The notes below the pieces were generated by a model. That model was given only the letters and a program-made list of their open reading frames with translations, searched no databases and was not told where the DNA came from. A DNA stretch of 62,864 nt, counting the filler, from Rhabdomonas costata (lineage: Eukaryota): NCBI GenBank assembly GCA_019059605.1. It is 51 parts of 51 records of this genome, joined end to end, with 100 filler letters (N's around TTAATTAATTAA, not from the genome) between each part and the next. Parts side by side here need not be neighbours in the genome. Positions count along the whole stretch, not along the records: positions 44,444 to 45,578 come from JAHMHO010026900.1; 50 more parts are not named here. One strand, given 5' to 3'. How positions within the stretch are numbered: the first letter of the stretch is position 1; every line of letters starts with the position of its first letter. Of this stretch, positions 20,879 through 45,577 are shown in pieces. A program made the position numbers and the translations under genes.

Positions 20879-23800
20879 ANNNNNNNNNNNNNNNNNNNNN
20901 NNNNNNNNNNNNNNNNNNNNNNNTTAATTAATTAANNNNNNNNNNNNNNNNNNNNNNNNNNNNNNNNNNNNNNNNNNNNGTGGGGTGTTTGTGTGTGTGT
21001 GTGTGTGTGGTTTGAAAAGCTCCGCGTACACCATCGGCCTAGGGGCCGCCAGCCCTGCGAGGAAGGTAAGAGTAGGCAGCGAGTTTTGACGTTAGGCGGG
21101 GGAAGGGTGGGGAAAAGGGACCTTGCAGGAGGGTGGCCTCCACCGTGATCCCCACCAGTAGCGCAGCCGCCAGCCCACGAGTAAGAAAGCGCAACCCTTG
21201 CAACATCATTTTGCTTCTTTTGCGGAGGATCGTGTGAAGAGAGTTGAAGGACTGCAAAAGTTGAAGGACTTGAAAAAGGACTGCAAACTGCAAACCGAAG
21301 AGCAAATGCGGTAGAGGCAGCGGAACGCGCTGGATAGTTTTCCAACGTTAAGGACCCAGCTAAGACCCTAAGGTGTCCAGTCGTTGATTCTTCATCATTT
21401 GTGACTGGATTTGTGACGAATCCAATAACAATGAAAAAGAAACCCAAGAAAAAACTTGAAAGAAACTCCAAGAAAGCTCCAGACCTCAAAATAAGGGTAA
21501 AACAATTCGCACTGACTTTAAAAAGTTACACAAACTAACGTGCCAACACATTTTGCGTGCCCCGAGGCGTGCACGATGCGCGACCCACGCCATGAATCAA
21601 CACGCAGGATGGCATGCGGAGCCCATGCAGCGCTTTCGACGCGTTTTCGGGAGGGTGCCGGAGGAAAAATTTTCTGCCTCATTAGCAGGTACGAAGAAAG
21701 CGATGCAATTTGGGAATGACCCAGATCCCCCCGCTGCTTTGTATATCCGTTGTTTGCGCAAAACCTGGGGCCTTGGAGTCCCCAATCCCAAACCGAATAG
21801 AGGAAAAAAGGGTCGATTGCGTCTGAACAGCCAACGAGAACCGATACTCTTTCAGCTTTCCAACTCTGTACTGCTCCGATTTTGGTTTCGTGACCGCACT
21901 CCCCTACCGCGCGTTTCCCGTGCAACAAGCCCTACAAAACGCAAGCACTGCAGCAAAGACACAAGTTGGCATGAAGCTGTGCCACCGAGGGTTCACACGG
22001 AAAGCCCAAACCAACAAACCAGCAGAAGGAAAGCGGGAGAGAGGGGCTTTCATGGAACACGGAAAACGAGGAAGCCATAACCACGGGCAGCCCCGTGGCC
22101 ACACAACCCCCAAANNNNNNNNNNNNNNNNNNNNNNNNNNNNNNNNNNNNNNNNNNNNTTAATTAATTAANNNNNNNNNNNNNNNNNNNNNNNNNNNNNN
22201 NNNNNNNNNNNNNNGTGTTGGGCGCGCAGCAGGAAGTCAGCGGGCCGCTTGCGCCCCCAACCAAGGGCGAAAACCCGCTGCAGAAGCAATGGCCGCAACA
22301 GAGTCACGTAACGCGCTATTATGACCCCAGAGACCAGCGTGGCGACATTCGACGACGTGAACGCCGAGTACGTCAAGAGGTTCCCCGCAGTACTCGCACG
22401 CACACCCCGCCGCTTCAAGTGGAATTGCAGCAGCAGGCGGTATTCGGCGGCACCGAAGTGAAGCCCAAGAACCGTGTTCGGCTTAACACTCAGAGAGACT
22501 CACCTCGCCTCTGAAGGCGAACCCGGTCACGAATGGGTAGTAGGTCCTGCGCAACCTTGGATTACATCTGGTCGCCCCAGAACAATTGTTCGTGCAGCTT
22601 CTGCTCAACCAGAGCCTCTGCGGCGGGAAGGGTGTGCGAAGCCACGATGAAAGGTGATAATCATGGTGGAGTTGAGACAGAACCTGAGCAGCGGCAGCTC
22701 AGTATTCCGAGTTCGGAGGAACAGAAAGCAGTCATCATGGGGGCGCCCGTCGCTGGCATGGCGCTCGTGGGGCCACAGCAGCCCAACGCAGGTGCAGGGG
22801 AGTAGTACACCGTGGGGACCATCCGGTAGCTGACGGAGGGCACCATCGTGCCGTTTCAGCTGCTGCTGCCGAAGCCCTTCTTCTTGAATGGGAGTCTGTT
22901 GCCCATTTCAATCACCACCGGGAAGAAAAAGAGCACAGGGTCTGCAGGGTCACAACAAAGAGACCGACGAGTAACACCCAATAACATTACCAGGTATTTC
23001 CCCTTCCTTCAAGCTCTGGTCAATTTGGCCAGCGCGTCTGGGGATCCCCTGTTCTTCAGCTAGCCAAAGATGGGGTGAGTGAGCAAATACTATTTGATGT
23101 GCAGCATATACAACCGAATTATATTCCCACCCACAAAGCTGCAGTGCCCCCCCCCCAGGCGGGATGCACGTGCTTCTGAGAATCGGAGAGGTTTTTCAAA
23201 CTGAGAGGTGGGGAAAGAACTGGCCGAGAGTGAGGAAAAAGCAGGGAAGGACTTTTGTACAGTTCAAGAAATTTTTGATTGCCAAATATGGGTGGGGCTT
23301 CTCGCGGTCTTTCCTGGAAGAAGCCCCACCCATATTTGGCAACCAAAAANNNNNNNNNNNNNNNNNNNNNNNNNNNNNNNNNNNNNNNNNNNNTTAATTA
23401 ATTAANNNNNNNNNNNNNNNNNNNNNNNNNNNNNNNNNNNNNNNNNNNNGTGTTGTGGGGCAGAGGAGGCAGGCTCCCTGCAAGATGGCAAGTGATGACA
23501 CGCTCCCTCTCCGCAGACCCCAGCCCTCCTAGAGGGACTGTGCAACCTCTCCCCGCGTGTCAACGAGTGGACCCGCGAGCGGATTCGAAAGCGAATAAAA
23601 TTTTGCATTTCTAGGTGGCACACCGGCAGCGCCTCAAGCGTGACAACATCTGATTTTTTTATGTGTGTGCCTGTGGCGGTGAAGGTGTGAGGCAAGTGCT
23701 GACGATGTTGAGGCGGAAGGTAGCCCATGCGATCTTTACGAGTGTGCAAGAGCCAAATGACCTCATAAGTTCAAAAAAATAATGGCCTGACGTAGGAACT

Positions 23801-44443: not shown

Positions 44444-45577
44444 GGTGGAAGCCGCAATGCGATCGTCTTTCCCGTGAAGAGCTTCACGAAGAATTGAATA
44501 CTCGCTGGTGTGGGTTCCACCGTGCAGAGGGCTGCCAAGGGAAGACCATGGGGACTGTCGATTGCAGCATGCCGAGCGAGTTGGTAGGCTGCCCGGAGAA
44601 CAATCGCGCAGGAAAGTGTGCTCCAGATAGAGCGAGACACCTCTTCCCGGGTCAGTGGAGCGAACGAGGACGCCTGGCGCGATATTACCGCTGAAATAAA
44701 GTTCCTGGCGTCGCACCGGAGAGCGCCGAAGGTATCGGCCACAAAGGGAAGGTATCCCCATCCCGCCGATTGGCAGAGGTCGCGGGAAAGGCGGACTTTC
44801 CGTAGCGCCGCGGAGTCCACCAGGAGTTGGTCTGGGGGCAGTTTATTCGAGGGGCAGACTGGTGTGACAATCGTGACGTCAATGGCCAGAGGGCGGCCTT
44901 TGTAATTGCCCACAAGTATGTCCGCTGGTACCCGGTCTGTCACCCCCGGCGGTGATTGCTCTGTCTTGACTGCAAAGCCAGCTTTGAGGAGGATCTGGAC
45001 CAGGGCTTCCTTGAGCGCCGTGTGACTCCGTCCAATGGTTCCAGTTTTCTGGCAGCATACTGCGTGGATTCCACGAGCGTCTGCGGTTCGTCCAAAGTCT
45101 GGACAACGGTACGGCGCCGCACGTAGCGGAATGCCCAGTACCCAGCGAACTGCTGCACGGAACTCGTTGGGGGTGAGCTGCGAGATCATCGGGGAGTGGG
45201 CAATCCAAGAGGTGGAGTGGGCGACACAGAGTGACTCAAGGCGCTGCTTGTCGACCAACTGCGCGCGCTGAAGAAGAGATCGCTGGGCTAGATGATGTAG
45301 CGGCTCCGTCAGTGTGGCTTGAAGGTGCTTGTCCGGAAAGAGGTCGGGAATGATGGCGGTGTCAAGTCGTGTCAGATAGGCTGTCAGCGCCTTACGTAGC
45401 TCCTCCTCCTGCGCTGCGGCTGGGACTCCCACTTCTATGGCCTGTTCGGCCGTGTTGACCGTGGTTGCGAGGCGTGCTGCTGGGCCGACAGTTGTGGGGT
45501 CACGGAGCCCTAGGCCCCCGCGACGAAGAGGGAGAGTTGCATGTTGCCACGTTGCGTCGTCCACGGAGGGAAGCTGC
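44444..45577 (-). mobile_element. CRE/SLACS-clade non-LTR retrotransposon ORF C-terminal part (post-RT region, Zn knuckle, REL endonuclease) continuing into a ubiquitin-like sequence
   Basis: ATLPLRRGGLGLR; FRAAVRWVLG; CPDFGRTADARGIHAVCC; PADIL...LAIDVTIV...K; YLPFVADTFGAL; ends IQFFVKLFTGKTIALRLP. Confidence 0.9.

Follow-up and report, generated by a model that had tools for sequence, protein, structure and literature searches.

LINEs that encode a restriction-like endonuclease (RLE) fall into five clades, which in the available text of the source are defined by reverse transcriptase (RT) phylogeny together with domain structure (PMC4640811). The element described here can be placed among these RLE-type LINEs from its PD..D..K nuclease and from the RT of its relatives, the window itself (the whole stretch of DNA that was analysed, 62,864 bases) holding no RT. 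The nearest solved proteins are those of R2 (PDB 9dou, 9nl3, 8gh6 and 8iby), with which it shares the arrangement of an RT, a linker, a CCHC zinc knuckle and a C-terminal PD..D..K restriction-like endonuclease in a single ORF. The RT of L001, a related element on a metagenome contig, matches R2 proteins at E 4e-7, PDB R2 chains being the sole named references compared, and the linker/RLE model of the related protein P0028 matches R2 chains at Foldseek E-values of 5e-6 to 1e-4, with seven matches at E<=0.001. Unlike the element, R2 has no ubiquitin-like domain (Ubl) after the nuclease in its ORF and, in the descriptions available, has DNA-binding domains of the zinc-finger/Myb kind at its N-terminus and takes rDNA as its insertion site, a context not seen for the element. 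In P0011, P0017 and P0010, the three longest members of the element's clade, whose ORFs are possibly 5' incomplete, no C2H2 or CxxC motif was found ahead of the RT motifs (YxDD).

The preliminary description assigned the element to the CRE clade. Membership there is decided by whether the RT groups with CRE1, SLACS and CZAR, so that for a contig holding no RT the assignment is a candidate one only. A C-terminal CCHC plus RLE architecture, together with N-terminal zinc fingers, is found in the CRE clade, whose elements insert site-specifically in spliced-leader genes; no spliced-leader target was seen for the element, and no CRE element that carries a Ubl is known to us. This clade (CRE1/2, SLACS and CZAR) is also a group of RLE-type LINEs, and in the same partial text the RLE LINEs NeSL and Utopia-1_TSP carry a component of the ubiquitin/SUMO system, an Ulp1-like cysteine protease, as an accessory domain (PMC4640811). 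As far as that text goes, theirs is an N-terminal protease specific for Ubls, whereas the element described here encodes the Ubl itself, after the nuclease; no Pfam protease domain was found in P0010, P0011 and P0017. A cellular parallel is provided by the ubiquitin precursors (polyubiquitin, ubiquitin-L40 and ubiquitin-S27a), in which a ubiquitin fold ending in RGG is likewise followed by further residues and which deubiquitinases cleave after Gly-Gly. The element's unit differs from these in that it follows a large enzyme, is ~46% identical to ubiquitin with I44 and R72 lost, and precedes non-conserved sequence, where theirs precedes a ribosomal protein.

No natural stretch of a chromosome, the window was put together as a pseudo-molecule from 51 contigs, each ~1135 bp long. 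Its contigs, which are apparently ordered by size (1-62864), are joined by artificial 100-nt linkers (44 N + TTAATTAATTAA + 44 N), so that any feature spanning a linker is an artefact. The locus lies on one independent contig at 44444-45578 (1135 bp, GC 0.60), delimited from the segment table and the sequence and flanked by an artificial 100-nt linker on each side; as the neighbouring contigs are unrelated, its local context stops at the contig borders. Compared with Rfam, the whole window gave no match.

On the minus strand, the contig is read by a single ORF, P0001 (44446-45576), with 377 sense codons, no stop, and an open frame at both contig ends. The remaining five frames of the contig contain 6-11 stops each, and none of 5000 base shuffles was free of stops (mean 10.8). 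The ORF runs through the linker that follows the RT, a CCHC knuckle and a nuclease of the PD..D..K type and, after a further, short linker, enters the beginning of a domain derived from ubiquitin. By its sequence, the contig represents the 3' portion of an ORF, the only one of an RLE-type LINE (non-LTR retrotransposon), and it begins downstream of the RT; among relatives whose alignment covers the window ORF completely, an RVT_1 domain is found in P0009, P0010, P0011, P0002 and the ORF of L001.

The post-RT linker motif, ATLPLRRGGLGLRDP, lies at 45496-45540 (minus strand, as are all features of this ORF) and is conserved in relatives as ATLPLRxGGLGLRDPT. The CCHC zinc knuckle, CPDFGRTADARGIHAVCC, occupies 45052-45105, and its residues C158, H171 and C175 are invariant in an alignment of five sequences. 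Its second Cys is Phe in the window copy (CPDFGR, codon TTT, 45094-45096), where close relatives have CPDCGR, and the regular C-x2-C...G-x-H...C pattern is present in 122 of the 159 related proteins examined. Because of this replacement the window copy may be inactive, its ORF being otherwise intact. The catalytic core of the RLE spans 44797-44928 and consists of P217-A-D219 (PAD, 44911-44928), D233 (in AIDVT, 44872-44886) and K260 (44797-44799); D219, D233 and K260 are invariant in the five-sequence alignment of close relatives. The conserved RLE domain ends, judging from alignments of relatives, with IDSPHGLPLAA at 44530-44562, and is followed by a Pro/Thr-rich linker of 10 residues (44500-44529), which in relatives measures 19-57 residues.

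Directly after this linker, at 44446-44499, come the first 18 residues of the Ubl, IQFFVKLFTGKTIALRLP, corresponding to beta1-turn-beta2 and cut by the contig end. They align without gaps to residues 1-18 of the ubiquitin of a stored protein, with 10 of 18 identical and a pairwise E-value of 8e-4, and their start lines up with that of the Ubls of P0009 and P0154. Taken alone, the match of these residues to a Ubl HMM is weak (E 0.053), and Pfam returned no ubiquitin match for them, the only hit on the window ORF being a sub-threshold DUF7284. The uninterrupted ORF with a post-RT motif and a PD..D..K nuclease, and a ubiquitin-like start at 44499 after a short linker, had been recognised in the preliminary description, and both are borne out here at the positions given above. 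The zinc knuckle it mentioned is likewise present, with the loss of the second Cys having escaped it.

A profile built on the linker/RLE region and extending into part of the RT matched 8454 proteins at E<=0.001 among 1.84 billion representatives, a large family, of which the best 150 matches were examined. An RLE that reads into a Ubl in one ORF was found in 12 sequences from independent assemblies, the window included (P0001, P0009, P0170, L001, L002, P0160, P0177, P0154, P0004, P0028, P0044 and P0175). The most informative is P0009 (961 residues), which aligns to the window ORF at 55% identity and 100% coverage and continues from RVT_1 through the nuclease into a full ubiquitin domain. Residues 594-669 of this protein match the Pfam ubiquitin family (PF00240) with an E-value of 1.2e-13 and 51 bits (cutoff 25.4), and align to ubiquitin 1-76 without a gap, LRGG included, with 35 of 76 residues identical (~46%); the top PDB matches of this Ubl are the ubiquitin precursors, i.e., polyubiquitin, ubiquitin-L40 and ubiquitin-S27a. 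P0170 also reaches 51 bits against the same cutoff. In a second lineage above the Pfam threshold, P0177 has a complete Ubl (E 7e-15, 55 bits, cutoff 25.4). Together with P0160, P0177 represents the intact version of the L001 type: on its 3344 bp contig, L001 encodes RT, nuclease and Ubl in one frame up to a frameshift within the Ubl, whose remainder, ending in LGLPGG, lies in another frame. L002, a separate metagenome record, shows the same junction in DNA, with the start of the Ubl at its contig end, and P0154 retains the first 23 residues of the Ubl, beyond which similarity is lost.

Other members are far more diverged. The Ubls of P0004 and P0028 end in GRGG and VRGG, respectively, and P0028 remains below the Pfam ubiquitin threshold (14.3 bits, E 0.035), while proteins of the P0044 type give only weak YukD and Rad60-SLD matches. 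A phmmer search with the P0009 Ubl against the 159 proteins recovered, besides P0009 itself, only P0154 and P0044, and an HMM built from four Ubls found no carriers among the related proteins beyond P0154 and P0001. In structural models, the Ubls of two of these divergent lineages match the ubiquitin (beta-grasp) fold. The model of P0028 is confident over the nuclease; its Ubl has a pLDDT of 87-94 and matches ubiquitin and ISG15 chains in the PDB, with a TMt of 0.57-0.67 and an rmsd of 1.6-3.8 over 57-62 columns. The model of P0172, of the P0044 type, matches ubiquitin at an E-value of about 1e-7, with a TMt of 0.8-0.9 and an rmsd of 1.3-2.0 over about 76 residues for single-ubiquitin chains.

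In a tree of 71 proteins that cover the RLE region, all five rows with a Ubl fall inside one clade of 26 rows (SH-aLRT 100), and four of the five inside a subclade of 14 (support 96). The distribution of the Ubl requires three changes on this tree, which only 1 of 500 shuffles of the label does as well. Most other rows end too early after the nuclease to show a Ubl; among the seven clade members with at least 150 residues past the nuclease, it is present in four and was not detected in P0011, P0058 and P0017. P0022 was left out of this count because of a spurious alignment. Five loci of relatives were located in metagenome contigs by a profile-alignment search, which gave none in prokaryote genomes and none in viral contigs, and an Atlas search returned eukaryotic clusters only.

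The Ubl diverges about in step with the nuclease, as a constrained, co-inherited domain does and a host ubiquitin gene would not: between P0009 and P0160, the RLE is 87% and the Ubl 79% identical, and between P0004 and P0028 the values are 49% and 45%. The element Ubls are not host ubiquitin genes, since they share no more than about 46% of their residues with ubiquitin and their divergence follows that of the element. At the recent end of the scale, P0009 and P0170 are identical at 588 of 590 positions upstream and have the Ubl and about 200 tail residues in common, beyond which the count of 22-residue repeats and the flank are no longer the same. Two recent insertions of an element with a Ubl would account for this, and near-identical copies at different loci suggest recent activity. 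The two P0009-type copies have unlike 3' flanks; the window contig holds none. In P0170, the ORF leaves the 3' tandem repeats and enters, at residues 879-932, a fragment resembling a sulfotransferase (sub-threshold in Pfam, E 5.5e-4), which suggests that this copy inserted into a host gene or beside one.

On these grounds, the Ubl is an inherited part of one lineage of RLE-type LINEs, and because related elements from other assemblies carry it complete, the fusion is a real trait of that lineage, one that appears undescribed. The preliminary description had raised the possibility of a family with a captured C-terminal Ubl. The family itself holds up, with the junction in independent assemblies, a full fold and a di-Gly; the strictly C-terminal position does not, as past a visible Gly-Gly the frame stays open for 62 to >400 further codons.

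Gly-Gly is found at the exact ubiquitin position in four lineages, as LRGG (P0009/P0170), LPGG (L001/P0177), GRGG (P0004) and VRGG (P0028), and the Ubls of these lineages are mutually only 25-29% identical. In no copy where Gly-Gly is visible is there a stop codon next to it. The open frame extends past Gly-Gly for 62 residues in P0177, 146 in P0028, 153 in P0004, 181 in L001, 292 in P0009 and 404 in P0170, and in L001 the 181 open codons have a shuffle P of 0.012, with 4-5 stops in the other forward frames. The sequence that is read through is non-conserved and partly tandem-repeated. Between P0177 and L001, which are otherwise near-identical, the frame switches 24 residues into the tail and P0177 stops after 62; the tails of P0004 and P0028 could not be aligned beyond a local match of 17 residues. 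A conserved coding tail past Gly-Gly was rejected on these two comparisons. In the P0044 type, all four proteins end in ...LVLST, on contigs of four lengths and three residues short of the expected Gly-Gly, which may reflect a stop codon at this point or contigs that all break there. The read-through tail of P0028 includes, at residues 405-444, RDKILAWRWRL-type repeats predicted to form one long helix (pLDDT about 88-92), followed by GTRSSRGGGGC repeats.

The explanation that we consider probable as a whole is that of a lineage of RLE-type LINEs with an inherited Ubl, captured once, which is trimmed at Gly-Gly and has a docking or stabilising role. The ORF would have gained a ubiquitin coding unit at its 3' end by a single capture. 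Host proteases specific for ubiquitin or Ubls would cleave the protein behind Gly-Gly, in the manner known from cellular ubiquitin precursors; the mature RT-nuclease would then end in the Ubl regardless of the sequence downstream, and the Ubl fold might serve as a docking or stabilising module. The retention of Gly-Gly in four divergent lineages, with nothing constrained downstream, suggests a protease cut after Gly-Gly, and a mature enzyme ending in the Ubl would explain the lack of conservation of both the stop codon and the frame downstream. Cleavage by host proteases is the tentative part of this account, and may well not take place. Several observations weigh against the explanation: the window holds only 18 residues of the Ubl, its contig ending before Gly-Gly or any stop; in P0009, the surface by which most receptors bind ubiquitin and an E1 determinant are changed (L8V, I44R, V70S, R72G); one sublineage has LPGG instead of LRGG; the P0044 type ends three residues before the expected Gly-Gly; and three of the seven long clade members have no detected Ubl.

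Cytopathic pestiviruses carry ubiquitin inserts, which lie in front of the protein that is released. These resemble the element's Ubl in the way they work only, as a short module that lets one ORF yield separate or trimmed products, and differ from it in that nothing conserved lies behind the latter. The 2A peptides found in LINEs (PMC3708506) are similar in the same restricted sense, a short module by which one ORF gives separate or trimmed products, and differ in acting on the ribosome, with no host protease. A stronger form of the cleavage reading, which we regard as speculative and distinctly unlikely, would make Ubl-Gly-Gly a stop signal at the protein level that is operated by host deubiquitinases in place of a fixed stop codon. 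Ribosomes would translate the 3' region and its tandem repeats, and in two copies even flanking DNA, and the cut at Gly-Gly would release the RT-nuclease near the 3' end of its own RNA while the junk tail is discarded. If this were true, the element could do without a stop codon and still obtain an enzyme of defined extent, perhaps with cis-preference as well.

The serious rival to Gly-Gly trimming is an uncleaved docking domain. The Ubl would then act as an interaction or stability domain of the Rad23 or parkin type, in which Gly-Gly is only a relic of a ubiquitin origin, and we consider this rather unlikely, if by no means far-fetched. In its favour, Gly-Gly is not visible in any of the four proteins of the P0044 type, which yet have a good ubiquitin fold, the LPGG of the L001/P0177 type would make a poor protease site, and P0009 has changes in the I44 patch and at R72. 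A mere relic, however, sits uneasily with a Gly-Gly that is kept at its exact position across four lineages whose Ubls have diverged so far, and the missing stop beside it, with a downstream frame unconserved even between L001 and P0177, is easiest to understand if that sequence is removed.

Trimming might also serve a different end, in that a free Gly-Gly would let the whole RT-nuclease be conjugated to host proteins, e.g., of chromatin, and so be tethered to its target. N-terminally extended ubiquitins can be conjugated, which speaks for this possibility, as does P0009, which keeps both the LRGG end and K48. The determinants by which ubiquitin is recognised by E1 and by its receptors are R72 and the L8/I44/V70 patch, respectively. 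In the gapless alignment to ubiquitin, P0009 lacks all of them, having V8, R44, S70 and G72 instead, and because of these residues and of the LPGG in one lineage, conjugation by the ubiquitin E1 looks unlikely. P0004 and P0028 are far more diverged still, which makes use of the ubiquitin E1 unlikely for them too, and we regard conjugation as improbable overall.

A purely local origin of the window's junction by accident, be it through one insertion that reads into a ubiquitin(-like) gene of the host, through a family with polyubiquitin genes as its target, or through a chimera formed in assembly or amplification, would be compatible with the 18 residues, the single copy in the window and the tiny contig, and is nonetheless very improbable given the same in-frame junction in 11 further sequences from other assemblies, the alignment of the window's 18 residues with element-borne Ubls, the ~46% identity of element Ubls to ubiquitin and their divergence with the element, and the different flanks of P0009 and P0170 beyond the Ubl and tail. 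The preliminary description had offered a single insertion fused to a ubiquitin-like gene as its alternative, which the in-frame junction in relatives from independent assemblies contradicts. It had also considered that the junction might be an amplification chimera absent from independent data, that a single copy might carry it, and that similarity might stop after 17 residues; at the level of the family, the junction is present in other assemblies, several copies carry it and relatives have a complete Ubl. Targeting of polyubiquitin genes was rejected as a candidate of its own, given that Ubl and element diverge together and that the flanks are not alike.

RNase H, an esterase and an Ulp1-like protease are known as accessory domains of LINEs. 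No paper on a LINE-encoded ubiquitin domain was found in full-text searches of the openly available literature, and the word 'ubiquitin' occurs 0 times in the available text of the Utopia paper, which lists RLE accessory domains including the Ulp1-like protease (PMC4640811). Within the literature searched, ubiquitin as a built-in, conserved domain of a LINE enzyme thus appears undescribed. It points to a retrotransposon protein that makes direct use of the host's ubiquitin system, be it in processing, in stability or in recruitment.

Several further observations concern relatives in which no Ubl is recognisable and the remainder of the window. The C-termini of P0017, P0019, P0010 and P0075 have in common an 'IRVRVRP'-like strand followed by 'VW(S/T)DG(E/Q)G(A/C)RVWA', which may represent either a remnant or some other small module of the C-terminus. 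Among distant relatives, domains of other kinds precede the RT: a Dam-like methyltransferase in P0113 (31.5 bits, cutoff 28.1), a Prim-Pol in P0121 (27.3 bits, cutoff 22.8) and, below threshold, an OTU protease in P0083 (17.7 bits, cutoff 23.3). Within the window, the RLE-Ubl sequence occurs in one copy, to which a weak CCHC fragment at 22221-22428 can be added. The latter, on the minus strand at a contig edge, is a second, different RLE-LINE fragment, comprising a CCHC knuckle and the start of a nuclease, with ~38-40% identity to P0001 and P0009 over 53 residues (E 8e-5 to 2e-4). The contig at 28386-29520 stands out by a GC content of only 28.5%, as opposed to about 50-60% elsewhere; it is open from end to end on the minus strand, encodes an Asn/Thr/Ser-rich protein and may come from another genome or compartment.
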